In this document: positions 1,866-52,085 of the stretch, one piece after another
Layout: every line of letters begins with the position of its first letter
How positions within the stretch are numbered: position 1 is the first letter of the stretch
NCBI GenBank assembly: GCA_022822625.1
Contig: JAJEAV010000080.1
Span: forward strand, 34,258 to 98,257
Origin: Gammaproteobacteria bacterium
GTDB taxonomy: Bacteria; Pseudomonadota; Gammaproteobacteria; Arenicellales; Poriferihabitantaceae
DNA length: 64,000 nt
Direction: 5' to 3'
The notes under the pieces: model-generated
Told to the model about the DNA's origin: nothing
The model's input: the letters and a program-made list of their open reading frames with translations, nothing else
Databases searched by the model: none
Translations under genes and position numbers: made by a program

Positions 1866-1867
1866 GC

Positions 1868-3193: not shown

Positions 3194-3211
3194 TCAAACA
3201 GAATCAAGGGC

Positions 3212-5023: not shown

Positions 5024-5043
5024 CCAATGAGGGGAAATCATTG

Positions 5044-6039: not shown

Positions 6040-6046
6040 CCGTACA

Positions 6047-6802: not shown

Positions 6803-6817
6803 AGTGAGCCAGGCTAA

Positions 6818-7545: not shown

Positions 7546-7677
7546 ACGAAAGACAATTAAACAACAAATCAAGAGGATCCTGATTTATTTGTATTTGGTC
7601 TTATCCTGCTTTCAAGGAAACCTCTCGAAAGCAACATGGCGAGTCCTTCATTCCATATCAGAACACTAAATGACCAT

Positions 7678-7938: not shown

Positions 7939-7946
7939 CGGTATTC

Positions 7947-8891
7947 ATGAGTTTGCGTGCATCCTCGTCCGTGCCTTTTCGGTTACAGCGCAGTGAGCTT
8001 GTAGTTCCCGGATCCAATCTGGGAATGATTGAGAGTGCTGCGAGAAGTCAAGCGGATTACGTGTTACTGGATTGTGAAGATTCGGTAGTATCGGATAAAA
8101 AAGACCAGGCAAGAAGCAACGTTATCAGTGCCTTGAATGAAATCGACTGGAAGCAGGCGGGCAAGACCGTTTCAGTTCGCATCAACGGGCTGGAGAGCCG
8201 CCATATGTACTGGGATGTGTGCAAGATTATCGAAAAGGCTGGAGACCATATCGATACTTTTCTAATTCCCAAGGTGGGCTCTCCTGAAGATGTTCATGCT
8301 GTTGAGAAATTACTCTCCATTGCTCTACTGGATTCTGGCATAACGCGCAGGGTTGGTTTGGAGTGCCTGATTGAGACGGCATTGGGCCTGGTCAATGTTG
8401 AAGCCATTGCCCGCCTGTCCTGTGCGACTGGGTCGCGTCTTGAAGCCCTACATTTTGGCGTGGCTGACTTCTCAGCAAATTGCCAGTCACGATCTCTGGC
8501 GATTGGAGAAACAGGTCATCTCTGGCATCCAAGTCTGCAACGAATGCTGATTGCATGTCGGGCCTATGGCCTAAGGGCGATTGATGGTCCGTATGGTGAT
8601 TTCAGTGACGCACAAGGATACATCGATATTGCCAAAGGTGCAGTAGCGATGGGGTATGAAGGCAAATGGGCTATCCACCCGGCACAGGTTGATCTTGCGA
8701 ATCAGGTGATGTCTCCAGCCATTGCCGAGATAGAACAAGCCCGCAAGATACTGGATGCTCTGGATCAGGCTCAAGGTTCGGGGCAGGGCGCGGCCTCTCT
8801 GGATGGAAAAATGATTGATGCTGCATCAGGAAAAATGGCCGCAAACATCATAAACAAGAGTCTTGCCATCGCCGAGAAATCTTCCGCATAA
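7947..8891 (+). CDS. HpcH/HpaI aldolase / citrate lyase beta (CitE)-like, malyl-CoA-lyase-type
   Basis: Size is 314 aa, with CitE-like blocks LLDCEDSV, ECLIETALG, HFGVADFS and KWAIHPAQV. Confidence 0.8.
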   Translation: MSLRASSSVPFRLQRSELVVPGSNLGMIESAARSQADYVLLDCEDSVVSDKKDQARSNVISALNEIDWKQAGKTVSVRINGLESRHMYWDVCKIIEKAGDHIDTFLIPKVGSPEDVHAVEKLLSIALLDSGITRRVGLECLIETALGLVNVEAIARLSCATGSRLEALHFGVADFSANCQSRSLAIGETGHLWHPSLQRMLIACRAYGLRAIDGPYGDFSDAQGYIDIAKGAVAMGYEGKWAIHPAQVDLANQVMSPAIAEIEQARKILDALDQAQGSGQGAASLDGKMIDAASGKMAANIINKSLAIAEKSSA

Positions 8892-8897
8892 ATCAAT

Positions 8898-8985
8898 TGG
8901 CGGAGAGTGAGGGATTCGAACCCTCGGACCTGTTACAGTCACCGGTTTTCGAAACCGGCGCATTCGACCACTCTGCCAACTCTCC
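8898..8985 (-). tRNA. tRNA-Ser (anticodon CGA), long variable arm
   Basis: The reverse complement is GGAGAGTTGGCAGAGTGGTCGAATGCGCCGGTTTCGAAAACCGGTGACTGTAACAGGTCCGAGGGTTCGAATCCCTCACTCTCCGCCA. The anticodon loop is TTCGAAA, the variable arm is class II, and CCA is encoded. Confidence 0.95.
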
Positions 8986-9040
8986 ATGGGGCAGATTATA
9001 AATCCATTTCCATGCAGTCCGAATGTTTCCGAGTGAACGG

Positions 9041-9421
9041 TTATAGCATGTCATGCTCTTCAAGAACTTTACGCGCAACCCGGAAACATTCGAGCGACTG
9101 GGGAACGCCACAATAAATTCCGATGACATGAATGATGGCGCGGATTTCTTCCATGCTGACGCCGTTGTTGATTGCCCCTCGGCAATGGATTTCCCACTCA
9201 TGCATTTTGCCTAGAGCCCCGATCATCGCAAGGTTCATCATGGACCGCGTCTTGGGAGCAATTACTTCATCGCCCCAGCCAAATCCCCAGCACCAGGCGG
9301 TCATTGCTTCCTGAAACGATCGGGTTAACTCATCAGCATTATCAAGATTATTTTGTACATATGCATCCCCCAGAGTCTCTTTGCGCTTTGCAAGGCCTTT
9401 GGAAAAAAGATCATCATCCAT
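9041..9421 (-). CDS. Carboxymuconolactone decarboxylase (CMD/PcaC-like) family protein
   Basis: 126 aa, with the typical CMD core ...TRSMMNLAMIGALGKMHEWEIHCRGAINNGVSMEEIRAIIHVIGIYCGVP. Confidence 0.85.
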   Translation of the reverse strand: MDDDLFSKGLAKRKETLGDAYVQNNLDNADELTRSFQEAMTAWCWGFGWGDEVIAPKTRSMMNLAMIGALGKMHEWEIHCRGAINNGVSMEEIRAIIHVIGIYCGVPQSLECFRVARKVLEEHDML

Positions 9422-9503
9422 AGTGAATTACCTTAATTCTGAAATTGTTTGAGGTCTACATTATGCCAGACAATGCGTCGACTGAAGCTGGAATCCGGCA
9501 GTG

Positions 9504-11945: not shown

Positions 11946-12110
11946 ACAGGTATATCAGAGTGAAAGGCAATACTGTAAATGATACACTCGTATCAAAATA
12001 CATGACAAGTGTTCATTTGTCACATTTTGCATTGTAGTCGAAACCAAATCCGGCTTGATGATGAATGACCATGAATCAATATTCAAACGCACGAAATAAT
12101 CACGAATCAG

Positions 12111-13001
12111 ATGTCCAGCAGCAAGTCAAAGCCGACAAGTCAGGAGGCAGTCGTCAAACGATTGCATGAAGTGATTGACGATTTACCGGGCAAGCTACAG
12201 GTCGCTGCCCGGTACATCATTGATCATCCGCATGAAGTGGGTATCAACACCATGCGTAATCTGGCTTCGGAGGCAGGGATTCATCCGAACTGTTTCGTGC
12301 GTCTTGCACGTGAGCTGGGTTTCAGCGGTCATGAGGAGATGCGTGAGCGATTTCGTGATTTTGTAAGAAGTGGTTTCGGAAGCAGTTCGGACCGAGTCGA
12401 GCATCTGCATGAACTCGAGAAACAGGGTGGAACTGCGGGTATCGTAGCCGGAATCGCCGAATCAATTCTCAATAATCATCTACAGACCGTGCAATCTCTG
12501 GATATGTGGGCTCTTGAGCAAGCTATCGAGTGGATGTGGGACAGTGAACGGGTTTATGTCCTGGGTTTGGGAGCGGGATATCCTCTGGCTTTTAATTTCT
12601 GGTATGTGGCTCGCATGATCCGTGAGCATTTCATACTGATTCCAAAACATGGCAGTCTGGCGATGGATGACATGTTGCATGCCGGGGCGGGTGACTTGTT
12701 GTTTTGCATGACATTTCAGCCGTACCGCACGGATGTTCTGGAAGCCATGCGTTTTGCCAAAGGTCAAGGGGTCAGGATTATCGGCTTGTCCGACAGCTCG
12801 GCAGCAAGGATTTGCCGGGAAGCCGATCTTGGCTTGTACGCACCCACCCACACCCCGCAATTTTTTCACAGCAATGCTGCGGTAACGGGTCTTCTGGAAA
12901 TGCTGTGTGCGATTCTGGTTGTAAAGGGCGGAAAAGCGGCCTCCCGTCATGTTGAAGAACTCAATACCTTGCGTTGGGAGAGTGGAATTTATGAAGAGTA
13001 G
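12111..13001 (+). CDS. MurR/RpiR-family transcriptional regulator (HTH + SIS domain)
   Basis: The N-terminus shows the HTH_6-like pattern LPGKLQVAARYIIDHPHEV...MRNLASEAGIHPNCFVRLAREL. The C-terminal SIS-like region includes VYVLGLGAGYPLA. The gene is divergent from paralog 1. Confidence 0.8.
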   Translation: MSSSKSKPTSQEAVVKRLHEVIDDLPGKLQVAARYIIDHPHEVGINTMRNLASEAGIHPNCFVRLARELGFSGHEEMRERFRDFVRSGFGSSSDRVEHLHELEKQGGTAGIVAGIAESILNNHLQTVQSLDMWALEQAIEWMWDSERVYVLGLGAGYPLAFNFWYVARMIREHFILIPKHGSLAMDDMLHAGAGDLLFCMTFQPYRTDVLEAMRFAKGQGVRIIGLSDSSAARICREADLGLYAPTHTPQFFHSNAAVTGLLEMLCAILVVKGGKAASRHVEELNTLRWESGIYEE

Positions 13002-15866: not shown

Positions 15867-17009
15867 ATGTCTTCGAATACTATTTCTGAACCGATTCTGG
15901 GACTTTCTGCCAAATATTTCACGGATGGCCGGACTCATGAGCAAATCAAGCACAAGGTGTTCTTCAGAACATGGCAGTTTGCTTGCCATGAAAGTCGAGT
16001 CCGGCAAAAAGGTGATTATTTCACCTTGAACCTGCTTGATCAGGATATCGTTATTGTCCGAGATGGAGAAATGCGGTTGCAGGCCTTCTATAATGTTTGC
16101 CAGCATCGGGGGCATCGACTTCTTGAAGGACAGGGCAACAAGCAACGCATCAGTTGTCCCTATCATTCATGGACATATAATCTTGCGGGTCAGTTGATTG
16201 CTGCTCCCAACTCCGGTTCGGTTTCGGGATTTGATGCCTCCAGCATTTGCATCCCAAAAATCCGCGTCGAAAATTTACTGGGCTTCGTATTCATCAATCT
16301 GGATGAACAGGCTCTCGGCATGGATCAATGCTATCCCGGTGTTCGCGAGGCAATACTGGATATTTGCCCTGAAATCGAATCACGGCAATTTGCTTTTGAA
16401 CATCATGTCAATGAAGGTTGCAACTGGTTGACTGCGGTCGAGAATTACAACGAATGTTATCACTGCAAACTTGCCCACGCCGAGTTTGCCAAGGGCATTA
16501 TCGATCCGGCCAGCTACAGTATCGTGCCGTTTGGCCAGGGCAGGGTACTTGAACACACCTCCAAGGCGAGTCAGAGTAGCCAGGCCTGGTATGACATGCA
16601 GGGTTCGGGTTATGCCAGCTATTATCTGTGGCCGACAAGTTCGATCCAGATTTATCCGGGTGGTGTGATCAATACCTACCACTGGCGACCATTGTCGGTT
16701 GATGATGTATGCGTATATCGAGGCTGGTATTCCGACGATGGTGAAATAAGCGATACATTGCAGAAAGTCATTGATCTGGATCGTGAGACTACGTTTTCAG
16801 AAGACCTGAAACTGGTGCGCAATGTTCAGCGCGGCCTGTATTCCAAGGGGTACCGCCCCGGCCCATTAGTCGTTGATCCGGCCGGTGGGATAGACAACGA
16901 GCTATCGATCGCTGTTCTTCATGAATGGCTGAGAGCATCACTTGACGAGACCTGGGTCCAGTCAAACACCAATGGCAATCCAGTCCAGGAAAAAACCCAT
17001 GCAGGATAG
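15867..17009 (+). CDS. Rieske [2Fe-2S] non-haem-iron oxygenase alpha subunit (GbcA/Stc2/CntA-like class)
   Basis: Rieske motif CQHRGHRL...CPYHSWTY and mononuclear iron motif ENYNECYHCKLAH (H-x4-H). Size is 380 aa. Confidence 0.85.
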   Translation: MSSNTISEPILGLSAKYFTDGRTHEQIKHKVFFRTWQFACHESRVRQKGDYFTLNLLDQDIVIVRDGEMRLQAFYNVCQHRGHRLLEGQGNKQRISCPYHSWTYNLAGQLIAAPNSGSVSGFDASSICIPKIRVENLLGFVFINLDEQALGMDQCYPGVREAILDICPEIESRQFAFEHHVNEGCNWLTAVENYNECYHCKLAHAEFAKGIIDPASYSIVPFGQGRVLEHTSKASQSSQAWYDMQGSGYASYYLWPTSSIQIYPGGVINTYHWRPLSVDDVCVYRGWYSDDGEISDTLQKVIDLDRETTFSEDLKLVRNVQRGLYSKGYRPGPLVVDPAGGIDNELSIAVLHEWLRASLDETWVQSNTNGNPVQEKTHAG

Positions 17010-18315
17010 TCCAGGTAGTTCACAACGGTATTCGGATCGGTTGTTCCAAATTGCCGAGAATGTTATTCCGGGTGCTGGACTTGGAAGCTATGCCTTGTCG
17101 AAGGATGTTCGACTGATTTACAGTCATGGTCGGGGATCACGTATGTGGGATGTAGACGGGCGTGAATATATTGATTATGTCGGTGGTGCAGGTGCCCTGA
17201 TCCTGGGACATGGCCATCCAGCAGTTGTTCAAGCCTCGAAAGACCAACTGGAGCGTGGGGCACATATGTTTGGTTCGCTAAACGATGTTGCCATTACTCT
17301 GGCCGAGAGACTGGTCAACGACATTCCCTGTGCAGAGAAACTGATTTATGCAACAACAGGTTCGGAAGCGACTGCCTATGCAATGCGTCTTGCTCGTGCC
17401 TTTACCGGGCGAGAAAAAATCCTCAAGTTCGAGGGGGCGTATCATGGAAATCATGATTATGCAATTGTAAGCTGTTTCCCTAGGGAGAGCGGTGATTATC
17501 CACAGGGAGTTGCCGATTTCTCGGGTCAGCCAGTAGCTACTACTTCAACGATGCTGGTTTGCCCTTTCAATGATCTTGAGACTCTGGGTAGTGTGGTAGC
17601 GCAAAATAAAAACGAAATCGCTGCAATCATTGCCGAGCCGGTTCAGAGAATCATTGCGGCGAAACCGGAGTTTCTGCACGGTATCCAGAAAATCTGCCGG
17701 GACAACGATATCGTATTCATTCTGGATGAGGTCGTTACGGGTTTCCGTTTGAGTTATGCGGGTGGGCAAGGCTGGTATGACGTCAAGCCCGATCTGGCAA
17801 GCTTTGGAAAGATTGTCGGGGGAGGTGGTCCGATGTCCTGTGTTGCAGGGCGTGCCGATATTCTTGACCTGGCTGACCCGGATTACAAGGGTCGACCTGG
17901 CTATGCCTACATCAATGGAACACTGCATGGCAATCCAGTGGCTGCCAGCGCAACCCTTGCCATGCTGGATGTATTAAGCCAGCCGAAGGTCTACGAGCGC
18001 ATGAATGCCTATACCGAGGAACTATGTGTTGCCTGTCAACAGGTATTGAACAAATACAGGATTGATGCGATTGCCGAGTGTACAGGGTCACTATGGCAAA
18101 TCCTGTTCATGAATCAGTCGCCAGTCAGTATTTCGGATATTCTGGCTTCCAATCAAGGTGCCATGCGCCGCCTGGATACAGAGTTGCTGAAGCAGGGGCA
18201 GTATGTACTTCCCGGGGTGCGACGTTTTGTTTCAGCCGTGCATGATGATCGTGATTTTGAGGAGACGGTGCGCGGTCTGGAGGAGGCCTGCAGGGTCTTC
18301 AACAAATTGGGATGA
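16999..18315 (+). CDS. Class-III PLP aminotransferase, glutamate-1-semialdehyde aminomutase-like
   Basis: Motifs ILDEVVTGFRLSYAGGQ and SFGKIVGGGGPMS (PLP-Lys) are present. The ATG at 16999 overlaps the Rieske stop by 11 nt; the track start at 16942 would overlap further. Confidence 0.85.
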   Translation: MQDSPGSSQRYSDRLFQIAENVIPGAGLGSYALSKDVRLIYSHGRGSRMWDVDGREYIDYVGGAGALILGHGHPAVVQASKDQLERGAHMFGSLNDVAITLAERLVNDIPCAEKLIYATTGSEATAYAMRLARAFTGREKILKFEGAYHGNHDYAIVSCFPRESGDYPQGVADFSGQPVATTSTMLVCPFNDLETLGSVVAQNKNEIAAIIAEPVQRIIAAKPEFLHGIQKICRDNDIVFILDEVVTGFRLSYAGGQGWYDVKPDLASFGKIVGGGGPMSCVAGRADILDLADPDYKGRPGYAYINGTLHGNPVAASATLAMLDVLSQPKVYERMNAYTEELCVACQQVLNKYRIDAIAECTGSLWQILFMNQSPVSISDILASNQGAMRRLDTELLKQGQYVLPGVRRFVSAVHDDRDFEETVRGLEEACRVFNKLG

Positions 18316-30910: not shown

Positions 30911-32009
30911 ATGCGATCAATCAACGAGTTACGTGAGAATATCGAATCCGTGCGCCAACGCGTTCAGGCGTTGAGGGGGTATCTTTGACTTCGATGCCAA
31001 GAAGGACCGTCTGGAAGAAATTAACCTGATACTTGAAAATCCGGATATCTGGAACGATCTGGAACGCTCGCAGACACTCGGTCGGGAGCGTTCGATCCTG
31101 GAACAGGAAGTGACCACAATCCAGCAGCTGACCGTTGATAGCGATGAGGCACTTGAGCTTCTTCAACTGGCGGTTGATGAAGAAGATACTGATACACTCA
31201 CCGAAATTGATACAATCATCGATGACATGGAAAAGTGTCTCGGCGAGATGGAATTTCGTCGCATGTTTGACGGTGAGGCTGATGACTCCAATGCCTTTCT
31301 GGATATCCAGTCCGGTTCGGGCGGTACCGAGGCTCAGGACTGGGCCCAGATGTTGCTCAGGATGTATTCGCGTTGGGTAGAAGATCAGGGGTTCGGACTT
31401 GAACTTATTGAGCGATCAAACGGAGAAGTGGCCGGCATCAAGAGTGCTACCATTAAGGTTACCGGTTCTTTTGCCTATGGTTATCTGCGTACCGAAACCG
31501 GCGTGCACCGGTTAGTCAGGAAGAGCCCTTTTGATTCCGGGAATCGACGTCATACCTCATTTGCATCGGTTTATGTCTATCCTGAAGTCGACAACAGTTT
31601 TGAAATTGAAGTCAATCCGGCAGATTTGAGGGTCGATACATATCGCTCAAGCGGTGCGGGCGGACAGCATGTCAACAAGACCGACTCGGCTGTGCGTTTG
31701 ACTCATATACCAACCGGAATTGTCGCGCAGTCTCAGAATGACCGCTCCCAGCATCGAAATAAGGAAGAAGCAATGACCATGCTGAAGGCAAAACTGTATG
31801 AACTTGAACTGGCCAGGCGCAGACAGGAAAAACAATCCATAGAGGACAGTAAATCAGATATCGGTTGGGGGAACCAGATTCGCTCTTACGTTCTCGATCA
31901 GTCCAGAATCAAGGATCTTAGGACTGGAGTTGAAACTGGCAATACACAAGCCGTCCTGAACGGTTCGTTAAACGAGTTCATTGAGGCCAGTCTCAAGTCC
32001 GGACTGTAA
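30911..32009 (+). CDS. prfB: Peptide chain release factor 2, requires a programmed +1 frameshift at 30986
   Basis: Frame 0 runs from ATG 30911 to ...AGG GGG TAT CTT TGA. The +1 frame continues from 30987 ([13 protein letters not shown]...) in phase with the track ORF 31110..32009, which carries SPF and GGQ ([17 protein letters not shown]). Confidence 0.95.
30974..30989 (+). other. prfB autoregulatory +1 frameshift site
   Basis: AGGGGG (internal SD-like) is followed by TAT CTT TGA C, the canonical slippery CUU-UGA-C context. Confidence 0.9.
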
Positions 32010-40308: not shown

Positions 40309-41346
40309 TTATTGAACGATCAAGGAGGCGAGCTTTTCTGCACCGAATCGTACTACATCCTGAACCGGATAGCCTGTCTCAACTTCCAGTTCTTCTATTG
40401 CCTTGCGTGCATTCTCTTCGTCAAGTAGCGAGGTATTCAGTGCAATTCCGATCGTTGATGGATTCGCCAAGGCCCCGCAGGCTGATGCGACCTGTTCATT
40501 CAGTTGAATAAATTGCCTTAGTGGGGGAATCGCTATCTTCTCTGATGCTCGCAGTGAGGCAATGCCGGCTCGATGGCACATGACTAGATGTGTTGGACAG
40601 GCTCCTCGCATCAGGGGGAGTGTTGCCGTACTTCCGGGATGTAACAGGGAACCCTGTCCTTCAATGATGATAATGTCGGCATCACTTGCTTCCATTACCA
40701 GGGTCTCCACAGCGCCACAGGCATGGTCCAGCTTGAAACCATCCAGTGGAATGCCTTTTCCAGTGACTGTGATACCGATTTGCCCGGTTGCTAAAAAATC
40801 AGAGTCCAGGTTCGGGCATTGATTTTGAATCCACTTCCATATCTCGAGTCCTGCGGTCATCTTGCCGATTGCCATATCGGTTCCGACCATAAGAATGCGC
40901 TTGTTGGGGAGTGAAGCAGCCTGGGCACTGGCAATGGCCGGTGTAAAGGCAGGCTGGCGAACATCCCAGATCCATTGTCCGGGCTTCAGATTGCTGCCGA
41001 ACCTCTCATGCAGGGGGTCGTGCAGGCCATTGACAATACTCATGCCGAGTTGAATGGCCTTGCCTAGTGGTTCCAGCCAGTTATCCGGAATGCGTCCTCC
41101 GGAAGGAGCAATGCCGATGACCAGAACATCGGCACCGGTTTTTACGGCCTGATCGATATTCTGAAGTACGGGATAATCAAAAGGGAGTGGAGAGACATCC
41201 CTTACGGTTTTTCCGGCATTGGTTGAGTCAATGACACAGACGATTTTGTTTTTGCTGAAGCGCATAACGCCAAACCCCATTTTCCCAAAATCCGAATCGA
41301 GGTTTTCCTCCATGTAGATCGCAATTCGGTGATGGGGCTGTAGCAT
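40309..41346 (-). CDS. DUF1611-domain protein (DgcN-like family)
   Basis: 345 aa. The N-terminus HRIAIYMEENLDSDFGKMGFGVMRFSKNKIVCVIDS and the central VGTDMAIGKMT P-loop-like segment resemble DUF1611 proteins as I recall them. The family call was not verified by search. Confidence 0.55.
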   Translation of the reverse strand: MLQPHHRIAIYMEENLDSDFGKMGFGVMRFSKNKIVCVIDSTNAGKTVRDVSPLPFDYPVLQNIDQAVKTGADVLVIGIAPSGGRIPDNWLEPLGKAIQLGMSIVNGLHDPLHERFGSNLKPGQWIWDVRQPAFTPAIASAQAASLPNKRILMVGTDMAIGKMTAGLEIWKWIQNQCPNLDSDFLATGQIGITVTGKGIPLDGFKLDHACGAVETLVMEASDADIIIIEGQGSLLHPGSTATLPLMRGACPTHLVMCHRAGIASLRASEKIAIPPLRQFIQLNEQVASACGALANPSTIGIALNTSLLDEENARKAIEELEVETGYPVQDVVRFGAEKLASLIVQ

Positions 41347-43327: not shown

Positions 43328-45742
43328 TTATTTCTTCATGCGCAGGTCCGAGGGGTCATAGGGAGAATCCTTCAGGATACGTGCTGCTACGCGGTTTCCA
43401 AGAATATCGACGTACAATGGTTGTTCCCCGGACGCTTCCTGTAGATAAGCCAGGGCAAGAACCATGCCGGTGCGGTGCCCATATGCTCCCGAAGTGACAA
43501 TGCCGACTATATGATCTTGCTCATAAACGGCATGCATGAAATAAGGGTCTACACCGGTATCTTCCAGCTCCAGAAGGTGCATGGACAGACGATCCGGACA
43601 TGTTGTCCGCTCAAGCAATGCATCTCGGCCCACAAAGTTTCGGTTCTCGGGTTTGACAAAACGCCCGAGGCCCGCTTCCACAGGCGTACGCTCAGAGGTC
43701 AGATCCATTCCCCAGGCACGATATCCCTTTTCCATTCTCATGGCATTCATTGCGAATGCTCCATAAAAACCCATGTCGAACTTCATGCCTGCCTCCCGCA
43801 GGGCCATAAAGAGCTTTTCCTGTTGATTGATGTCATGATGCAGTTCCCAGCCCGACTCTCCGATATAGGAAATTCGTAACGCCAGTACCTCAATGTCTGC
43901 AACACGGATTCTGCGTGCGCTTAACCAGGGAAACTCCTCCTGTGACAAGCCATCATCGGTGAGACAGGACAAAATGTTGCTGGCATTGGGCCCCATGAGA
44001 CCCAGTACGCCTTTGCGCGTTGTCAGGTTTTCAATATGTACGTCAGGAAAAAGTGCTGCCCGACGACGCAATAGGTCATGGTCATGACGCTCGGCTCTTG
44101 CAGCACCTGCAAGGTAGTACTGATTCCTTGCAATGCGCGTGACCGACCATTCGGAAATGGTGCCTCCGGAACTATGCAGCGCATGATTAAGGGCAATTTG
44201 TCCGTCCTTGGCAGGTGGGCGATTCGTGCCAAGACTTCCCATAAACCGGTCTGCCGAAGAACCTGATACCTCAAATTTGCTCATTGCACTTTGATCTCCA
44301 AGCACAGCGCCTTGCTGTGCCTGGAGGCATTCCCTGGAAACTGCCTGAAACCATTCGGCACGTTGAAAGCCGGGGACAACCCGAAAGTGCTCGTTTGAAT
44401 GAGCAAACCAGTTGGGTCGTTCCCAGCCATAGACGGCACCAAATACCGCACCTTCCTTTTTCAGACTTTCATAAACCGGCGTTTTTCGCTTTGGACGTCC
44501 AGCCGAGCGCTCCTCATAAGGATAGTGAACAGCAAATTGTGCGGCAAAACTCTCGACTGCCTTGGAGACCCGGTAATCACGGTCCACATAGCCACCGAAA
44601 CGCCTTGGGTCAATGGACAGGGCATCTGCTGGTGGATGTCCATCCACTATCCATCTTGCCAGAAAGTCTCCACAACCCCCGCCTTCCATGACTCCCATGC
44701 TTGAACCGGTCAGTAGCCAGGCATTGGTTTTTCCGAAAGCCGGCCCCACCAGTGGGTTGGCATCCGGTGTGAAGGTGATGGGTCCGTGTACGATATTCCG
44801 GATGCCGCCTTGGGATGCCGCTGGGATTCGTTCCATGCAATTCATGACAATATTTTCGATGCGGTCCAGGTCGGGCGGCAGCAAATCCATGCCAAAATCG
44901 ACAGGCACTCTGTCAATAGCCCATGTTTTGCCATTCCGTTCATAGGGGCCAATGATGATGCCATTCTGTTCTTGTCGAAGATACCAGCTCTCATCGGGGT
45001 CTCGTATCATGGGCAATTCGTAGCCCAACTGTGCATAATCCTCGACCTTGTTGAGTACGACATACTGATGCAGCATGGGCACAACGGGCACATCCACCCC
45101 CATCATGCTGCCAATTTCCCGACACCATGTTCCTGCCGCATTGACTACATGCTCGGAGCGGACTGATCCATGCGGCGTATGAACAAGCCACTCGCCAGAC
45201 ACTTCCTCAATAGCTTCGACGGGAGTATTTCGATAAATCTCCACCCCTTTGTTTCGTGCGCCGCGTGCAAAGGCATGGGTAGCCTGGGAGGGATCCACAT
45301 ACCCATCGCCTGGTTCATGGATGGCACCAATTATCCCTTCGGTTCGTACCAGGGGATAGAGAGACTTCAATTCGGAAGGGCCAAGAATATGAAAGTCATG
45401 ACCGGCATATTTTCCGAGTCCGCAAACCTGGCGAAATTCATCTAGGCGATGCGGATAACGGGTAATTCGCAAGGCTCCAACCTGATGGAAGCTCACCGGT
45501 TGTCCGGTTTTCATCTCCAGCATACCACTGTAAAGCCTGATGCTATGGGCCCTAAGGTTCATGATTGTGATGTCATGAGCAAAATGGGTGCACAGGCCTG
45601 CGGCGTGCCAGGTCGACCCGGCAGTAAGCTCTCGTTTTTCCAGCAACACTACATCCCTGACACCAGCCTCCGCTAGATGGTATGCCAGTGAGCATCCCAT
45701 GACGCCTCCGCCGACAATGACAACTCGAGCATGACTCTTCAT
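43328..45742 (-). CDS. FAD dehydrogenase-GcvT fusion (dimethylglycine/sarcosine dehydrogenase family), paralog 2
   Basis: VVIVGGGVMGCSLAYHL, AGSTWHAAG and the C-terminal GcvT-like YIGESGWELH. Size is 804 aa. The start lies 6 nt after the stop of paralog 3. Confidence 0.85.
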   Translation of the reverse strand: MKSHARVVIVGGGVMGCSLAYHLAEAGVRDVVLLEKRELTAGSTWHAAGLCTHFAHDITIMNLRAHSIRLYSGMLEMKTGQPVSFHQVGALRITRYPHRLDEFRQVCGLGKYAGHDFHILGPSELKSLYPLVRTEGIIGAIHEPGDGYVDPSQATHAFARGARNKGVEIYRNTPVEAIEEVSGEWLVHTPHGSVRSEHVVNAAGTWCREIGSMMGVDVPVVPMLHQYVVLNKVEDYAQLGYELPMIRDPDESWYLRQEQNGIIIGPYERNGKTWAIDRVPVDFGMDLLPPDLDRIENIVMNCMERIPAASQGGIRNIVHGPITFTPDANPLVGPAFGKTNAWLLTGSSMGVMEGGGCGDFLARWIVDGHPPADALSIDPRRFGGYVDRDYRVSKAVESFAAQFAVHYPYEERSAGRPKRKTPVYESLKKEGAVFGAVYGWERPNWFAHSNEHFRVVPGFQRAEWFQAVSRECLQAQQGAVLGDQSAMSKFEVSGSSADRFMGSLGTNRPPAKDGQIALNHALHSSGGTISEWSVTRIARNQYYLAGAARAERHDHDLLRRRAALFPDVHIENLTTRKGVLGLMGPNASNILSCLTDDGLSQEEFPWLSARRIRVADIEVLALRISYIGESGWELHHDINQQEKLFMALREAGMKFDMGFYGAFAMNAMRMEKGYRAWGMDLTSERTPVEAGLGRFVKPENRNFVGRDALLERTTCPDRLSMHLLELEDTGVDPYFMHAVYEQDHIVGIVTSGAYGHRTGMVLALAYLQEASGEQPLYVDILGNRVAARILKDSPYDPSDLRMKK

Positions 45743-45748
45743 GGCAGA

Positions 45749-48181
45749 CTACCCATCTCGCATCTTGTGTCCATATGGATCATAGGGAATATCTGGCAGT
45801 CTGGCTAGAGCGTGCATTTCGCCAGCTACCTTGATCGTAAATCCGGAAAGTCCGGTTTCTGCATTTATGCATTCGGCATCTATATAACCAAGGCACAGGT
45901 TTTTGTCGGTTCGAAAGCCTGGCCCACCGGAAGTGGTTCTACCAACCCACTTGTCGTTGTAGTAGATCGGTTCATCATGCAGTAGCAGTGGCCGTGAATT
46001 CGGTGTCTCGAACAAGACAAGCTTTCTGTCTATGACACGTCTGAGTCTAACCAATGCCTCCTGTCCCAGAAACCCGTCAGGCTTGTCCAGCTTTACCGCA
46101 AAATCCAGACCGGCCTGCCATGGGTTATCCTCCGGGCCTATATCCTGTCCCCAATGGAGGTAGCCTTTTTCCAGTCGACAACTTTCCATGGTCATTGCGC
46201 CTGCCATGCCCATTCCACCATTCTGTGCCACTTCCAGTACAGTGTCCAGTACCTGGTAGGCCTTGTGGTGATGAATCATCAGCTCCCAGCCCAGTTCTCC
46301 GACATAACTTAGCCGCGATGCTCGTACCCTTGCGCCTGCAAGATTGAACTGTCTTGAGGTCGCAAACGGAAATGACTGCTTTTCAAAGACTCCAGGAGCA
46401 AGTGTTGACAGGGCCACTCTGGAGCCGGGGCCCATAACCCCCAAAACTGCATACTCTCGGGTAATGTCCCGTACAGTTACCGTACCATTGTCTACATGTC
46501 TTAGTAGCCAATCCCTATCTCGGACTCTTGTCGATGAGGCACTGGTGAGCAGATAGGAGTTTTCACCTGTTCGAATCACGGTTAGTTCACACTCTATGCC
46601 GCCGCGCTCATTGAGCATCAGCGTGTAGACGACTTTTCCGATTGGAACACGGATATCGTTTGTGCAAAGCCACTGTAATGTTGCCAGTGCCTGAGGGCCT
46701 TCCACCAGTAATTTGGTAAATGGAGACAATTCAAACAGGGCCCCGGTATCCTGTAGCATCATGCATTCCCGTCTGCATACCGGCCACCAGCACTGGTCGT
46801 CATAGCTATATCGAATTTCTGCAGGTTCATTTGCATTCGCAAACCACAAAGGTCTCTCCCAGCCTCCTGTTTCACCAAATACTGCTCCATATTTCCGAAA
46901 ATGTTCATGCCACACGGAAAGCGTCCGGTTTCTGCCGGTTCTATACTGTTTTAGAGGCCAATGCATGTCAAACTGATTCGATACCGCTTCGATTGTCCTT
47001 TCCTGCAAAAATGCCTGGTCATTGTCTCCTGGCTGGAATCGCCTGATATCCACTTCCCACAGGTCAGCAGGACTTTCCTCCTGTGCAATCCAGTCAGCCA
47101 TGGCCTTGCCGACTCCCGGAGCAGACATGATTCCCAATGAGTTCATGCCAGCGGCAACATAGAAGTTCACAACCTCCGGACTGCGCCCCATCAATGGCCT
47201 GGTGTCGGGCGTGAAGCTTTCCGGGCCAGTCATGAAATACGAGATGCCAATGTTGCGAAAGACTGGAACACGATGCATGCCCGACCTGATCATGGGTTCG
47301 ATGTGTTCCCAGTCCTCTTCAAGCACGATAAAGCACTCAGCGGGATCGAACCTGGCATGATCCCAAAGTTTGGCATTGGACTCAAAAGCCCCCAAAACCA
47401 GCTTGCCCGTATCTTCCTTGATGTAGAGTGCACTATCCATGTCCCTGCATACAGGCCAGGGTTCCGGTAAATCGAGTATGGGCTCTGTAACAATATAGAT
47501 GTGCTCAACCGCCTGAAGAGGCACATTTACTTCGGCAAGCTTGCCAACAGAACGGGCCCAGAGTCCGGTACAGTTGACCACAACGTCACAGTCAAATTCT
47601 TCTCCTTGATCCGTAGTCAAGACGCTTGCCAGCCTGTTGTGAACCTTGATGGATGACACGCCGACGTGTTCGCGAATCCTGACCCCGGACTGCCTTGCAC
47701 CCTTGGCCAATGCCATGCACAGGTCAACAGGGTTGATTTGGCCATCTTCTGCCAGATGCATGGCTCCGACCAGATCATGATGATTGATCATGGGAAATCT
47801 CTCCGCCAACTCGTCCGGCGACAGAAATGAAGCATGGAGTCCGTTCATTTCGCCTATGGCAGCGATGCGCTTGAGTTCGGTAATGCGATCAGTACAGCCG
47901 GTTAGCCACAATCCTCCTGTTTGCCTGTATCCGGTAGATTGGCCGGTTTCCGATTCGATCATTTCAATCAGGGGCAGAGCATATTTTGCCAATGCAGTCA
48001 GGTTCTGGGTTGCACGTAATGGGCCGACTATGCCGGCAGCGTGCCAGGATGTTCCGCTCGTAAGCGTATTTCGTTCTAGTAACGTGATGTTTTCAAACCC
48101 CAGCTTTCCGAGATGATAGGCAGTGCTCAAGCCGATTGCTCCGCCACCGAGAATGACGATTTTTGCATCGCTAGCATTCAT
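45749..48181 (-). CDS. FAD dehydrogenase-GcvT fusion (dimethylglycine/sarcosine dehydrogenase family), paralog 3
   Basis: IVILGGGAIGLSTAYHL, SGTSWHAAG and the C-terminal YVGELGWELM. Size is 810 aa. Confidence 0.85.
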   Translation of the reverse strand: MNASDAKIVILGGGAIGLSTAYHLGKLGFENITLLERNTLTSGTSWHAAGIVGPLRATQNLTALAKYALPLIEMIESETGQSTGYRQTGGLWLTGCTDRITELKRIAAIGEMNGLHASFLSPDELAERFPMINHHDLVGAMHLAEDGQINPVDLCMALAKGARQSGVRIREHVGVSSIKVHNRLASVLTTDQGEEFDCDVVVNCTGLWARSVGKLAEVNVPLQAVEHIYIVTEPILDLPEPWPVCRDMDSALYIKEDTGKLVLGAFESNAKLWDHARFDPAECFIVLEEDWEHIEPMIRSGMHRVPVFRNIGISYFMTGPESFTPDTRPLMGRSPEVVNFYVAAGMNSLGIMSAPGVGKAMADWIAQEESPADLWEVDIRRFQPGDNDQAFLQERTIEAVSNQFDMHWPLKQYRTGRNRTLSVWHEHFRKYGAVFGETGGWERPLWFANANEPAEIRYSYDDQCWWPVCRRECMMLQDTGALFELSPFTKLLVEGPQALATLQWLCTNDIRVPIGKVVYTLMLNERGGIECELTVIRTGENSYLLTSASSTRVRDRDWLLRHVDNGTVTVRDITREYAVLGVMGPGSRVALSTLAPGVFEKQSFPFATSRQFNLAGARVRASRLSYVGELGWELMIHHHKAYQVLDTVLEVAQNGGMGMAGAMTMESCRLEKGYLHWGQDIGPEDNPWQAGLDFAVKLDKPDGFLGQEALVRLRRVIDRKLVLFETPNSRPLLLHDEPIYYNDKWVGRTTSGGPGFRTDKNLCLGYIDAECINAETGLSGFTIKVAGEMHALARLPDIPYDPYGHKMRDG

Positions 48182-48300
48182 GGGGTTTCAGGTTCCGTAT
48201 GGAAGGTCATCGTCCTGATCACTAGCCTTGACTGGTACGGAAAACCTGACGAGAAGTCCCATTCATGACCATATGTGTTCCGGTTCTGGTACCCATGGTT

Positions 48301-49845
48301 CTAGTAGTGCCTGTCTGGCATGGATGTCTTGCGCCTGTGCACATATTCCTCCAGGGCTTCATGCTTGTCTTTCGGTAGCAAGGGCTCTTCGTATTCCGCC
48401 AGATATGTCTTCCAGATCTTGTTTGCCCGTTGCATGGCGTCCAGCCTCCCTTCTGCATGCCATTGTTCATAGGAATTGCTGTCACAGATGCCAGAGCGAT
48501 AAAATGCATCCTCGAAATTGTTCAGAGTATGCTGACTGGAGAGGAAATGCGATCCCGGACCTACTTCCATGATTGCTTCAAGTGCCAGTGCTTCATTCGA
48601 CAAATCGACGCCCTGGCAGAAATTGATGATTTTTCCGCACAGGTCGGCATCAATAATCGTTTTTTCATAACCGGTTACCAGGCCACCCTCGAGCCACCCG
48701 GTTGCATGATTGATGAAGTTTGCCCCGGCCAGAATGGCCGCGATCAAGCCTGATGCAGACTCTTGGCCTGCCTGACTGTCAGGCATCTTGGAACTGGACA
48801 AGGATCCGACAGTATGAAACGGAACGCCAAGGCGTCTAGCCAGCTGGCCTGCACACAGTACAAGTTTCATCCCTTCGGGGTTTCCGAATGTAGGTGCACC
48901 GGACTGCATGGACATGGCAGTGGCGAAACTACCCATCAGGCAGGGTGCACCGGGACGAACAAGCTGGGTTAGAGCACAGACCGCCAGTGCCTCGGCAAGA
49001 ATTTGAGCCAGTGTGCCGGCAACGGTACAGGGGCTCATTGCTCCCGCCACGGTCCAGGGGGTACAGGCCACTGCCTGATTGTTGGCGGCATAGGTTTTGA
49101 GTGCTCCGGACATCGCAACATCCAGCACCAGAGGGGCATTCGTATTGGCAACAGAGTAGAGGACGCAGTTGTCATCAACGAAATCATCTCCGAACAGAAT
49201 CCTTGCCATTCTTACCGAATCTGTCGCCCGGTCTGCACCGATCAAGGCACCAAAACAGGCCCGGTCACTGAAACGGAAATGCCCCAGCTGCATGTCGAGG
49301 TGGCGTTTGTTTGTCGCTATATCCGTGGGTTCGCAGACCACCCCACCGGAATGGTGAAGCCAGGGAATCATCTGGTGGATTCGAACCAGGTTCTGGAAAT
49401 CCGATAATTTGCCATAGCGTCTACCCTCGTCAAGGTCTTGTATGAACGGTGGTCCGAACGAAGGGCAGAGCACGACATTGTTGCCCCCAATGACTACATT
49501 GTTGTCCGGATTCCGCGCATGCTGTACAAACTGTCGGGGTGCGCTGGCCTGTACTATGCTTCTCGGGTGACCGGGTTCAAATCGAACCAGGGTGTCCTGG
49601 ACGTCTGCCCCTGCCTGCCTGAACAGGTCCAGAATTTCAGGATCTCCCGTAAAGCGCATGCCCGTTTCTTTGAGTATCGTATCGGCATTCTGTTCAATGA
49701 TGCTCAATCCTTCTTCGCCAAGCAAATCAAAAGTGGAGATTTTTCTGCTTATATATGGAAATCGCAATGCCGAGTGCCTCTTGCGGGCGGCACTTCGTCC
49801 CTTTCTGCCTGTTCTGCTGCGATTTCTTTCAGAAGTTATCTGCAT
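48301..49845 (-). CDS. MttB-superfamily (trimethylamine methyltransferase-like) protein, non-pyrrolysine type
   Basis: 514 aa in an uninterrupted frame. The Arg-rich N-terminus (RSRTGRKGRSAARKR) and blocks such as RRYGKLSDFQNLVRIHQMIPWLHHSGGVVCEPTDI...KRHLD are typical of MttB homologs. Confidence 0.75.
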   Translation of the reverse strand: MQITSERNRSRTGRKGRSAARKRHSALRFPYISRKISTFDLLGEEGLSIIEQNADTILKETGMRFTGDPEILDLFRQAGADVQDTLVRFEPGHPRSIVQASAPRQFVQHARNPDNNVVIGGNNVVLCPSFGPPFIQDLDEGRRYGKLSDFQNLVRIHQMIPWLHHSGGVVCEPTDIATNKRHLDMQLGHFRFSDRACFGALIGADRATDSVRMARILFGDDFVDDNCVLYSVANTNAPLVLDVAMSGALKTYAANNQAVACTPWTVAGAMSPCTVAGTLAQILAEALAVCALTQLVRPGAPCLMGSFATAMSMQSGAPTFGNPEGMKLVLCAGQLARRLGVPFHTVGSLSSSKMPDSQAGQESASGLIAAILAGANFINHATGWLEGGLVTGYEKTIIDADLCGKIINFCQGVDLSNEALALEAIMEVGPGSHFLSSQHTLNNFEDAFYRSGICDSNSYEQWHAEGRLDAMQRANKIWKTYLAEYEEPLLPKDKHEALEEYVHRRKTSMPDRHY

Positions 49846-49935
49846 TGCAATGAAAACGGTAGTAAGAAGTAGTGATGGGAAATTTTATTGTATAATAATC
49901 ATAATTATGGTGATTGTCCAATATTTTGAATCAAT

Positions 49936-50619
49936 ATGAATGATATCGAGATAGGAGCATCGGACTCAATAACGTTGTGGGCCGATTTCGAGAATATGTC
50001 TCCACGCAGAACCCAGTCGGAAAATCAGAGGTTCAGACGTGCCAGCCTGCTTGCAGCCGCTATTATTTCAGTGGCCAAATACGATATTTCTGGGGCTACG
50101 GTAGATCGTATCTGTGCCCAGGCCGGTGCTTCACGAGGGCTTATTGGGCATTATTTTGACAGCAAGGAAGAGCTGTTGTTGTCGGCATTGTCTTACTGGT
50201 TTCAGCAGGCATTGGCAATTAAGCGGGGAATTGCCCGGCATCCTGACTGGTCGGCCAGAGAAAGGCTGAGAAAAATTTCCTGCGCCAGCTTTGAACCGCC
50301 CCTTTACGACTGGCACATTGCGGCAGCCTGGCAGGCGTTTACCAATGCAAGCCGATACAATACTGCCTATGCAGAGCCGATTCGAACGGCCAGCAGAGAT
50401 ACCCAGGCACTGGTTGCTCCCCTGTTTGATGAAGCAGCCAAAGACCTTGGCATCAAGATTGATGCGAAAGCCGCCGCTACTGGACTTTATATTCTCGATG
50501 ATGGGTTATGGAACAGTATGGCAACGGGCAAAGATGGACTGGTCCCGGAAATGGCCTGCCATTGCTGTGATGTCTACATCAATGGCTGCCTTTCCCATGT
50601 CATGGCCCCTGACGTTTGA
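49936..50619 (+). CDS. TetR/AcrR-family transcriptional regulator
   Basis: TetR_N HTH: RFRRASLLAAAIISVAKYDISGATVDRICAQAGASRGLIGHYFDSKEELL. The gene is divergent from the mttB-like gene across a 90-nt AT-rich spacer. Confidence 0.85.
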   Translation: MNDIEIGASDSITLWADFENMSPRRTQSENQRFRRASLLAAAIISVAKYDISGATVDRICAQAGASRGLIGHYFDSKEELLLSALSYWFQQALAIKRGIARHPDWSARERLRKISCASFEPPLYDWHIAAAWQAFTNASRYNTAYAEPIRTASRDTQALVAPLFDEAAKDLGIKIDAKAAATGLYILDDGLWNSMATGKDGLVPEMACHCCDVYINGCLSHVMAPDV

Positions 50620-50717
50620 ACGGTAGGGTAGACCGATTACATTGGCCGTGATCCGTGAAGTGGACTGATCCATGGCATGTCGTAACCAGTAATGCAGACC
50701 AGACTTGAGGAGAAATC

Positions 50718-52085
50718 ATGATTGGCAAACACACAGTTATTTCTAGAATGATCGAATCAAACCCCCGTGCCTATTCTCCAGAGGTGGATTGGGACAGGGA
50801 TTCGATTGTTGCGCGGCGTGAGACCTATTACGCTGCTTCCCAGCGTGCGTTTGTTCCTTACAACACCCCGCTTATATTCAAGAAGGGGCAGGATCAGTAT
50901 TTATGGGATGAGCAAGGCCGGCAGTATCTCGACTGTCTAAGTCAGAACCTGTGTGTCAGCATCGGTTATAACAATCCGGCAGTTACGGCAGCAGTCAAGC
51001 ATCAAGTTGAGTTAATCCAGCACTGTACTACCATGTTTTTCCATCCTGTTCCGGCACATTTTGCGGAGGAATTGACGCGCAAGTTTCCATCGGGGGAAGA
51101 ATGGGTGGTGCACTTCATGAACAGCGGTGCCGAGGCGATTGATTTCGCTTTGCTACTGGCTCGGTCATATACCGGAAATACCGATATCGTTTCCCTCACC
51201 AATAGTTATCATGGGGCGACTTTCGGCGCCCAGTCGGTAACCGGAATCAGCAATTTTCGTCATAATGTTCCCTTGCTGGGCGGTATCCAGTTTACTTCCA
51301 ATCCTGACCAGTATCGTGGCGTGCATGGGGCGAGTGTTGAGCCGTACCTGCAAGATCTGGAACGTACTATAAACTGTGGAACCAGTGGGAAACTGGCAGG
51401 CATGATCATTGAACCCGTACAGGGCTATGGCGGTATCGTACCATTGCCGCATGGTTATCTATCCGGAGCAGCAGACAGGGTCAGGTCATCCGGAGGTCTC
51501 CTGATCATTGACGAGGTGCAGTCTGGATTCGGCCGTACCGGTGAGGACTATTGGGCATTCAGTTCGCATGGCATCGTGCCGGATGTGATTGTGCTGGCAA
51601 AGGGTATTGGTAATGGATATCCCCTGGGAGCGGTGGTTGCAAAACGCGAAATCGCCGAATCGATGGCTCACAAGTTCTACTTCAATACCTATGGAGCAAA
51701 TCCGGTTTCCTGTTCTGCAGGTCGTGCCGTGTTGCGGGTCATTGATCAATGCAATCTGATTGAAAATGCCCGGGTCGTGGGCGCGTCCATGCTTGAGGTC
51801 CTGCACAAAATGCATGATCGCTATGAAATCATCGGAGATGTTCGGGGTCGAGGCCTGATGATGGGTGCTGAACTGGTCAAGAGCAGGGAAACACGCGAAC
51901 CGGCTGTCGAAGAAATGCATGCACTGTTTCAGCTGACACGCAAATATGGACTTGTTGCAAGCAAGTCCGGAACCCACAAGAATGTACTGCGAATTTGTCC
52001 GCCACTTTGCATACAGATGGCCGATGTTGATTTCTTTGAGGAGGCAATCAGCAACAGTTTTGAAGAACTTTACGAGCAATTCTGA
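50718..52085 (+). CDS. Class-III PLP aminotransferase (omega-aminotransferase / AGXT2-like)
   Basis: IIDEVQSGFGRTGEDYWAF and VLAKGIGNGYPLGAV (PLP-Lys). Size is 455 aa. Confidence 0.85.
   Translation: MIGKHTVISRMIESNPRAYSPEVDWDRDSIVARRETYYAASQRAFVPYNTPLIFKKGQDQYLWDEQGRQYLDCLSQNLCVSIGYNNPAVTAAVKHQVELIQHCTTMFFHPVPAHFAEELTRKFPSGEEWVVHFMNSGAEAIDFALLLARSYTGNTDIVSLTNSYHGATFGAQSVTGISNFRHNVPLLGGIQFTSNPDQYRGVHGASVEPYLQDLERTINCGTSGKLAGMIIEPVQGYGGIVPLPHGYLSGAADRVRSSGGLLIIDEVQSGFGRTGEDYWAFSSHGIVPDVIVLAKGIGNGYPLGAVVAKREIAESMAHKFYFNTYGANPVSCSAGRAVLRVIDQCNLIENARVVGASMLEVLHKMHDRYEIIGDVRGRGLMMGAELVKSRETREPAVEEMHALFQLTRKYGLVASKSGTHKNVLRICPPLCIQMADVDFFEEAISNSFEELYEQF

Follow-up and report, generated by a model that had tools for sequence, protein, structure and literature searches.

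The 64,000-nucleotide window analysed here, a stretch of the gammaproteobacterial contig JAJEAV010000080.1, carries at positions 43328-52085 the genes for an MttB-like methyltransferase, two dehydrogenases (DH_A and DH_B), a TetR regulator and a class-III pyridoxal phosphate (PLP) enzyme (AT3). On balance, we favour the reading that these genes make up a repressor-controlled catabolic module that would take three N-methyl groups off a trimethylammonium compound and then remove its nitrogen, and that this compound is most probably not glycine betaine. Glycine betaine is disfavoured because the carboxylate site of the methyltransferase is remodelled, because a separate lineage of MtgB-like relatives (R-type) exists, and because the module is tightly linked to a putative ω-transaminase that glycine would not need. 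Judged by its sequence, the window methyltransferase is a member of a separate and previously unflagged subfamily, here called H-type, and the locus most likely represents a variant form of the Mtg pathway that was described for aerobes in 2025. No literature on this exact module was found. The features of the locus are the following.

43328-45742, minus strand: DH_A, 804 amino acids, ATG start
45749-48181, minus strand: DH_B, 810 amino acids, ATG start
48301-49845, minus strand: MttB homolog (H-type), 514 amino acids, ATG start
49846-49935, strand not applicable: divergent control region, 90 nt, AT-rich
49936-50619, plus strand: TetR regulator, 227 amino acids, ATG start
50718-52085, plus strand: AT3, class-III PLP enzyme, 455 amino acids, ATG start

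Open reading frame (ORF) calls, Pfam searches and measurement of the gaps reproduced exactly the five ORFs, the domains and the spacings described in the original prediction, and the third dehydrogenase paralog implied by its numbering was located at 9504-11945 on the minus strand (DH_C). The gap between mttB and DH_B measures 119 nt (50% GC) and that between DH_B and DH_A only 6 nt, and the 90-nt spacer between the divergent mttB and tetR genes has a GC content of 26.7% against 50% for the 64-kb window. In the 9.9 kb scanned, no terminator-like site was found in the 119-nt or the 6-nt gap, and the best promoter-like site (10 of 12 matches; -35 TGGACA and -10 TATTAT on the minus strand) lies in the spacer, facing mttB. 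With no terminator-like site in either gap and one strong promoter-like site, the three minus-strand genes resemble a single operon, as had been proposed. Their count, one methyltransferase and two folate-linked N-methyl dehydrogenases, likewise fits three demethylations.

The MttB homolog matched PF06253 (MTTB) over residues 11-510 of 514, with an E-value of 1.9e-200 and 666.6 bits (cut-off 25), which places it in the MttB superfamily (PF06253/COG5598). Its matches in the PDB were 4yyc (2.9e-171) and MtgB, 2qne (5.1e-99), and an exact-sequence look-up returned no record for it. We rejected a pyrrolysine (Pyl)-type trimethylamine methyltransferase, as the protein scored 240.8 bits with the Pyl-type model TIGR02369, under the cut-off of 525, and its 514-amino-acid ORF runs without interruption. 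Picking et al. (JBC 2026, PMC13080624) found that Y97 and F356 of D. hafniense MtgB make cation-π contacts and that R312 and H348 are the carboxylate ligands, activity being lost in the R312L variant; in the same work every characterised non-Pyl member of the superfamily, among them MtcB, MtpB, MtyB and MthB, keeps R312 and acts on an acidic quaternary amine. We transferred these pocket positions through an alignment with 2QNE, in which the chain index equals the residue number plus 16, a relation checked on all four residues. Results showed that Y97 corresponds to F130 in the window protein, R312 to H344, H348 to H380 and F356 to G388. The tetrad that binds glycine betaine in MtgB is therefore incomplete: F130 is an acceptable aromatic residue and H380 is kept, but the arginine is replaced by histidine and the second aromatic residue by glycine.

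The same replacements define a whole group of proteins. When 164 MttB sequences of the H-type and the R-type were aligned, His occupied the R312 position in every MttB encoded inside a module with DH_B, DH_A and AT3, and Arg in every relative encoded outside it, including the S. meliloti protein 4YYC. Both R312 to His and F356 to Gly hold in all 145 H-type sequences, which are monophyletic in a neighbour-joining tree. The two types are told apart without exception by eight alignment columns, among them those of R312, G314 and L347 (beside H348), and in each of the eight the R-type has the residue of D. hafniense MtgB (Thr and Ser being counted as alike at one). The H-type window protein is at most 61.5% identical to its R-type relatives. 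The metagenome-assembled genome (MAG) XB_MAG1186 holds both types, H-type at locus L017 and R-type at locus L028, a coexistence in keeping with paralogs that differ in substrate and draw on a common B12 machinery.

The two types also differ in the genes around them. Aerobic marine bacteria demethylate glycine betaine through the MttB-family enzyme MtgB, the corrinoid protein MtgC and the pterin methyltransferase MtgD, with RamA and DUF1638 reactivating cobalamin (Mausz et al., PNAS 2025, PMC12478193). One locus of Ca. Thioglobus (SUP05) shows what may be called the textbook aerobic glycine betaine methyltransferase cluster: at 317-8968 on the plus strand of locus L032, a compact mtgC-DUF1638-x-mtgD-ramA-mtgB arrangement with an R-type mtgB is followed by genes for formate-tetrahydrofolate (THF) ligase and formate dehydrogenase, and we used this cluster as the reference in searching for partner genes. 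At least one of mtgC, DUF1638, mtgD and ramA lay within 10 kb of R-type genes in 13 of 19 loci, from Gamma- and Alphaproteobacteria, Actinomycetota, Verrucomicrobiia and Limnocylindrales. In contrast, none of the four was found within 10 kb of the H-type gene in any of 25 loci, the 64-kb window being counted whole. In the loci examined, R-type genes never occurred in a DH_B/DH_A/AT3 module; some of their clusters hold a DMGO-like gene of their own and match the published glycine betaine route.

The original prediction had regarded the locus as self-contained, and this view has to be given up. Every characterised enzyme of the MttB superfamily methylates a corrinoid protein, and aerobes need MtgC, MtgD, RamA and DUF1638 in addition to the methyltransferase. 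Pfam searches of the window's ORFs of at least 180 amino acids detected no B12-binding, Pterin_bind, RACo, DUF1638, MTHFR or ETF domain; MtgC, DUF1638, MtgD and RamA of the Ca. Thioglobus cluster, used as tblastn queries, had no match in the window; and an Rfam search of the window found no cobalamin riboswitch. A corrinoid protein, a pterin methyltransferase, RamA/RACo, DUF1638 and electron-transfer flavoprotein (ETF) are thus all missing from the 64 kb. MetH was considered as a built-in corrinoid partner and discarded, the 1231-amino-acid ORF at 22766-26461 being a hydantoinase/oxoprolinase. The suggestion that an MttB homolog takes the place of BHMT or GbcAB in aerobes is no longer new, such a replacement having been shown for MtgB (PMC12478193), and in that work the step is not autonomous.

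The partner-gene split and the window without partner genes or riboswitch could also be read the other way round, as signs of a module that truly is self-contained, with a corrinoid-independent H-type MttB that hands its methyl group to tetrahydrofolate or another acceptor, for example through the GCV_T domains of the dehydrogenases. No member of the MttB superfamily is known to dispense with the corrinoid, however, and the TIM-barrel scaffold of the window protein is about 40% identical to that of MtgB. Moreover, in Eubacterium several MttB paralogs are served by one and the same corrinoid protein, and H- and R-type genes coexist in one MAG. We consider a corrinoid-independent enzyme distinctly improbable and prefer an MttB that depends on B12 proteins encoded elsewhere in the genome.

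To describe the conservation of the module, the window proteins were compared by tblastn with 43 related loci. MttB, DH_B, DH_A and AT3 occurred together in 16 non-redundant loci, from Gammaproteobacteria (Arenicellales, Poriferihabitaceae and Ca. Spongiihabitans, which are sponge symbionts) and from Alphaproteobacteria (Hyphomicrobiaceae, Nioella ostreopsis and others). The closest relatives of the window MttB, 73-92% identical, come from MAG SB0662_bin_52, Ca. Spongiihabitans, Ca. Poriferihabitaceae and Arenicellales, all sponge-associated Gammaproteobacteria. The gene order is rearranged between lineages. Gammaproteobacterial loci have AT3, and where present TetR, divergent from MttB, DH_B and DH_A in that order; several alphaproteobacterial loci have AT3 divergent from DH_B, DH_A and MttB. 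In the cultured Nioella ostreopsis Z7-4 all module genes lie on the same strand behind a LysR regulator, and in the cultured Mesorhizobium sp. B1-1-8 the same set is plasmid-borne and directly adjoins an ABC transporter of the betaine/choline type. With one exception, taken up below, the remaining H-type loci end at contig edges before the full set, and AT3 stands beside the H-type MttB in every locus with a long enough contig. Beyond the four core genes and TetR (the latter in the nearest relatives), no transporter, kinase or other neighbour is broadly conserved around the module; in one locus (L015) formate-THF ligase and an ammonium transporter adjoin it. In L001, a relative at 87% identity, a further MttB paralog that is highly divergent (30% identity) lies immediately downstream of the module, at 9018-12957 on the minus strand, and is paired with a DMGDH-type gene 37% identical to DH_A; pairs of an MttB and a dehydrogenase may be a recurrent building block.

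The four-gene set is not a chance neighbourhood: it recurs in 16 loci of two proteobacterial classes with its order rearranged, and an element of the spacer is conserved as well. One could still argue that the genes are mere neighbours with unrelated functions, for instance an MttB serving methionine synthesis and dehydrogenases acting on creatine-derived sarcosine, since accessory genes differ between lineages and the function of the module is a prediction from sequence. The linkage of the four genes, however, outlasts rearrangement across both classes and transfer onto a plasmid, the pocket type of MttB correlates perfectly with the neighbourhood, and the genes have tight gaps and a shared conserved control region. 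Among the readings considered, we give unrelated neighbours the lowest probability and take a common pathway as the basis for what follows.

Both dehydrogenases have the domain architecture of dimethylglycine dehydrogenase (DMGDH) and sarcosine dehydrogenase (SARDH), that is DAO, FAO_M, GCV_T and GCV_T_C, with all four Pfam matches over their cut-offs. DH_A matched rat DMGDH (4p9s) over its full length with an E-value of 4.1e-184, its flavin adenine dinucleotide (FAD) domain being 44% identical, and its matches to rat and human DMGDH were both at about 1e-184. DH_B, which is 31% identical to DH_A, is the more divergent paralog: it matched human DMGDH (5l46) at 9e-122, and its FAD domain is 33.5% identical to that of rat DMGDH. 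The His that binds FAD covalently (His48 of dimethylglycine oxidase, DMGO) and the His225/Tyr259 dyad are invariant in DH_A, DH_B and DH_C and in 17 DH_A and 21 DH_B orthologs; in DH_A the covalent-FAD motif reads STWHAAG, and H225 and Y259 have conserved counterparts. As the covalent-FAD His and the catalytic His/Tyr pair are invariant in both ortholog groups, it is very likely that DH_A and DH_B are both functional N-methyl amine dehydrogenases coupled to folate. The position of DMGO His364 holds Glu in all 17 DH_A orthologs and Ser in all 21 DH_B orthologs. DH_C, a third DMGDH-type paralog of 813 amino acids with Trp at that position, is 41% identical to the FAD domain of rat DMGDH and 36% to DH_A, and its gene is divergent from one for an RpiR/SIS-family regulator (12111-13001, plus strand).

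AT3 is a class-III enzyme by its match to PF00202 (Aminotran_3; E 1.8e-90, 304 bits, cut-off 30.5) and by its conserved AKGIGNG motif with the catalytic Lys. Its best match in the PDB was human ETNPPL (6tor, 5.2e-80), an Arthrobacter phospho-lyase (A1RDF1 type) also scored high, and the best NCBIfam models were those of kinase-fused AGXT2L-like proteins. These matches raise the idea of a phosphocholine route, in which an MthB-like MttB and the dehydrogenases would lead to phosphoethanolamine and AT3, as a phospho-lyase, would convert the latter into acetaldehyde, ammonia and phosphate; MthB provides the precedent for phosphocholine as a substrate. Residue-level comparison, however, spoke against a phospho-lyase. 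AT3 keeps Arg425 in the motif NVLRICPPL, where both solved phospho-lyases have Lys, and all AT3 orthologs have Arg there; in class-III transaminases (OAT R413, GABA-AT R398) this Arg is the ligand for the carboxylate group of the keto acid used as co-substrate. AT3 also has DCLSQNLCVSIGY and EPVQGYGG, whereas the phospho-lyases show a two-residue deletion with NNV-HVGH and a degenerate EPxQGxGG. The Lys, the deletion and the degenerate motif, which we take as activity-defining from two structures, are all absent from AT3, so that its identification as an ethanolamine-phosphate phospho-lyase was abandoned. In addition, MthB keeps R312 for the phosphate group and the H-type enzymes do not, and no conserved kinase lies near the module. 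The phosphocholine route, demoted by these observations, appears very improbable. With the transaminase Arg and EPVQGYGG kept and the two-residue deletion lacking, AT3 is more likely a true ω-aminotransferase.

Orthologs of AT3 at 55% identity or more were found only inside the module. Five loci (L003, L004, L007, L010 and L033) have AT3 followed on the same strand by the ectoine hydrolase gene doeA and then a hydrolase gene (amidohydrolase or HSL-type esterase); this arrangement, which is absent from the window, resembles a non-canonical ectoine degradation operon sharing the transaminase. A neighbour taken for a creatinase, and as such for evidence of sarcosine, proved to be this DoeA, which scored 639 bits against an equivalog cut-off of 613 (5462-6646, minus strand, in L004). 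A HalD-family gene stands beside AT3 in one locus (L004) and a PhyH-family gene in another; the HalD-like protein was compared with a 266-amino-acid insert in Nioella, and the two are not homologous.

The glycine betaine route has to be weighed at this point. In it, MttB would produce dimethylglycine, one dehydrogenase would be a DMGDH and the other a sarcosine dehydrogenase, and AT3 would be an AGXT2-like glycine/glyoxylate aminotransferase. Enzymes of the AGXT2 family interconvert glycine and glyoxylate, the closeness of DH_A to rat and human DMGDH suits the scheme, and the transporter adjoining the Mesorhizobium copy is annotated for glycine betaine. Genes for dimethylglycine and sarcosine demethylation are also often found near mtgBCD in marine bacteria (PMC12478193). 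On the other hand, the R312 position is His and the F356 position Gly in every module-linked MttB, and the R-type paralogs, MtgB-like at eight of eight columns, already occupy the mtgC-mtgD-ramA clusters, some of them with a DMGO-like gene of their own. Furthermore, MtgB1 and MtgB2 of R. pomeroyi, which are induced by glycine betaine, are stand-alone genes outside such a module, and a route ending in glycine would have no use for a dedicated class-III transaminase, although no partner gene is linked more tightly than AT3. The sequence of steps from glycine betaine through dimethylglycine and sarcosine to glycine, given as an example in the original prediction, thus loses ground with the replacement of the carboxylate-binding Arg of MtgB, and we regard it as unlikely. 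Its accompanying hint that the carbon skeleton may not be glycine has been strengthened by the AT3 linkage, the change of R312 to His, the H-type clade and the split in partner genes.

The regulator consists of TetR_N and TetR_C_6 (PF13977, the BetI-type C-terminal domain) in Pfam, and its best NCBIfam matches were two BetI models, at 75.1 bits (cut-off 118) and 74.2 bits (cut-off 201.3), with the next family at 26.6; as both fall below their cut-offs, it is BetI-like and not assigned as BetI. The tetR gene is confined to the closest gammaproteobacterial loci, Nioella and Mesorhizobium having LysR regulators instead. In the spacer, a palindrome with 20-nt arms (49886-49923) overlaps the promoter-like site of mttB and is contained in an element of about 40 nt (about 49886-49925) that reads ATTGGAC-N3-CATCATAAT...TAT-N-CAATAAAA. 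This element is kept in all six TetR-bearing loci (the window, L001, L004, L010, L011 and L036) and the rest of the spacer diverges, a pattern that we read as the phylogenetic footprint of a promoter/operator. The palindromic element is probably the TetR operator, and the TetR protein probably the local regulator of the module.

From these elements the following pathway can be proposed. In the first step, by analogy with the biochemistry of the family, the H-type MttB would demethylate the quaternary amine once, with a corrinoid protein in its Co(I) form as the acceptor, giving a tertiary amine and methyl-Co(III). The corrinoid protein, an MtgD-type methyl-corrinoid:tetrahydrofolate methyltransferase, RamA/RACo and DUF1638 would be supplied in trans from elsewhere in the genome, a kind of sharing that has been proposed for Ruegeria and Eubacterium, which have multiple MttB paralogs. 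In the second and third steps, as their domain architecture and catalytic residues suggest, DH_B and DH_A, both predicted to be covalently flavinylated and to bind folate, would between them oxidise first the tertiary and next the secondary amine (each is a candidate for the second or the third demethylation), each methyl group so removed ending as 5,10-methylene-THF and the electrons passing to an ETF encoded elsewhere. In the fourth step, AGXT2-like AT3 would turn the primary amine into an aldehyde or oxo product. The BetI-like TetR, acting at the conserved 40-nt operator, would keep the divergent promoters repressed for as long as it has not bound the substrate or an intermediate.

As for the substrate, our leading guess is a choline-type compound, with no carboxylate to be held by the binding site, which would be processed from choline through dimethylethanolamine and methylethanolamine to ethanolamine and then glycolaldehyde. 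This guess follows from the loss of an Arg common to all the enzymes with acidic substrates and from the BetI-like repressor. The next candidate is an ω-N-trimethyl amino acid, such as trimethyllysine (laminine) or γ-butyrobetaine, suggested by the five loci in which AT3 is followed by DoeA and a hydrolase, a pathway that needs an ω-transaminase for diamino acids, and by the HalD- and PhyH-family genes. In rough terms, choline-type compounds and ω-trimethyl or other amino-acid betaines would take equal and modest shares, glycine betaine a somewhat smaller one, and all other compounds the smallest.

Several points weigh against the proposed module or its substrate. The substrate is read solely from the missing Arg312 and from the neighbouring genes, and His can bind carboxylates too, as in ProX/OpuAC, so that the change from Arg to His is compatible with an acidic substrate. 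The 44% identity of DH_A to mammalian DMGDH fits glycine betaine equally well. The accessory genes conflict, the BetI-like repressor pointing to choline and DoeA and HalD to diamino-acid skeletons. The B12 step in trans presumes that mtgC, mtgD and ramA are present in the host genome. In locus L012, the exception mentioned above, DH_A is missing within 3.8 kb. Lastly, the AT3 ortholog of an Arenicellales locus (L033, 8534-9721, minus strand) can be aligned no further than residue 411, is without the NVLR motif at its C-terminus and looks truncated; it may be a pseudogene or the result of an assembly frameshift.

The rest of the window holds further genes of possible relevance to amine metabolism. 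Two Rieske/ring-hydroxylating-type oxygenases and a HemL/GntE-like class-III aminotransferase are encoded at 15867-17009 (plus strand), 16942-18315 (plus strand) and 21253-22353 (minus strand), the first oxygenase gene overlapping the aminotransferase gene. The best NCBIfam match of the oxygenases was GbcA (glycine betaine monooxygenase), with about 150 bits where the cut-off is 670, and together the three genes may represent a second, oxygenase-based pathway of N-demethylation or amine use. The DUF1611 protein encoded at 40309-41346 (minus strand) is related to the N-acetyltransferase DgcN (212 bits, cut-off 480); 'Dgc' in that name presumably refers to D-glutamate catabolism and not to the dimethylglycine enzyme DgcA, and we place this ORF outside the demethylation module.

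Other features concern the host. A 725-amino-acid protein made up almost entirely of ankyrin repeats (18491-20668, minus strand; Ank_2, 587 bits, 13 stretches) fits the sponge-symbiont affiliation of the closest relatives, such proteins being unusual in free-living bacteria and common in sponge symbionts. The window has prfB followed by lysS, a gammaproteobacterial arrangement; a CTTTGAC motif (30983-30989, plus strand) upstream of the RF-2 ORF (31110-32009), whose PCRF match begins at profile position 45, would suit the classic site of programmed +1 frameshifting in prfB. The genes for tRNA-Pro(CGG) (6818-6894, minus strand) and tRNA-Ser(CGA) (8898-8985, minus strand) lie on either side of an HpcH/CitE-like lyase gene, and Rfam and ARAGORN searches found no further RNA element in the window. 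Between 60000 and 64000 the GC content falls to 44.7% around a Fic/DOC-family gene (60936-62063), and the final 2 kb contain no ORF over about 120 amino acids; this may be a mobile or degraded region.

The discovery of the aerobic MtgBCD pathway in 2025 left open the role of the many MttB paralogs found per genome, and the module gives a handle on it: the His at the R312 position of MtgB, seven other columns and a fixed neighbourhood separate one paralog family from the glycine betaine enzymes, and two cultured hosts, Nioella ostreopsis Z7-4 and Mesorhizobium sp. B1-1-8, carry it. More tentatively, the module might represent a widespread aerobic pathway for the full N-demethylation of a non-acidic quaternary amine, in the simplest case choline, that bypasses the otherwise universal oxidation of choline to glycine betaine and uses the first non-acidic substrate of the superfamily. 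A non-acidic substrate would broaden the known chemistry of the superfamily and give marine bacteria an additional B12 sink, and metagenome labels of 'trimethylamine methyltransferase' or 'MtgB' for all such genes would need correction. If the proposed pathway exists, its range would be wide, taking in sponge symbionts, Alphaproteobacteria of pelagic and deep-sea waters, and soil rhizobia. Non-Pyl mttB homologs have been reported as transcribed in sponges, and the module is therefore likely to matter ecologically.

Among known systems, the aerobic MtgBCD system of Ruegeria pomeroyi (PMC12478193) resembles the module in that a non-Pyl pfam06253 methyltransferase acts first, in aerobic Proteobacteria, and DMGDH/SARDH-type enzymes and THF-linked C1 oxidation follow; its mtgB genes, too, can be unlinked from mtgC and mtgD. 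The window MttB differs in belonging to a separate clade with His in place of R312, never beside mtgC, mtgD or ramA and always beside two dehydrogenases and a class-III aminotransferase. D. hafniense MtgB (2QNE/9YCE; Ticak 2014; PMC13080624) shares the TIM-barrel family (E 5e-99, about 40% identity), the aromatic residue at Y97 (F130) and H348 (H380); the window protein, in contrast, has H344, G388 and a new Trp at 384, with G314 and L347 changed, and its host is aerobic, with no corrinoid protein or MtgA encoded adjacently.

The dehydrogenases have in common with mammalian DMGDH and SARDH and with Arthrobacter dimethylglycine oxidase the four-domain architecture, the covalent-FAD His, the His/Tyr dyad and the folate-binding GCV_T domain, and they depart from DMGDH and DMGO in the identity of DH_B to rat DMGDH, only about 33%, and in the Glu (DH_A) or Ser (DH_B) at the His364 position. 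AT3 belongs near the AGXT2/ETNPPL clade, with ETNPPL (6TOR) nearest and the AKGIGNG catalytic-Lys and NTYG-NP motifs in common, but keeps the transaminase Arg and the loop lengths that phospho-lyases have lost. The regulator is like the choline-responsive repressor BetI in combining TetR_N with a BetI-type C-terminal domain and in being encoded divergently from a catabolic operon; unlike BetI, it scores below the BetI cut-offs and stands next to mttB, its predicted target, rather than betAB. Finally, the MtcB, MtpB, MtyB and MthB enzymes of Eubacterium limosum, paralogs specific for different quaternary amines that share their corrinoid machinery, offer a model for the specialisation of H- and R-type enzymes. 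They use acidic substrates, keep R312 and remove one methyl group to feed acetogenesis, whereas the window module is predicted to add two flavoprotein dehydrogenases and a transaminase and so to complete the breakdown.

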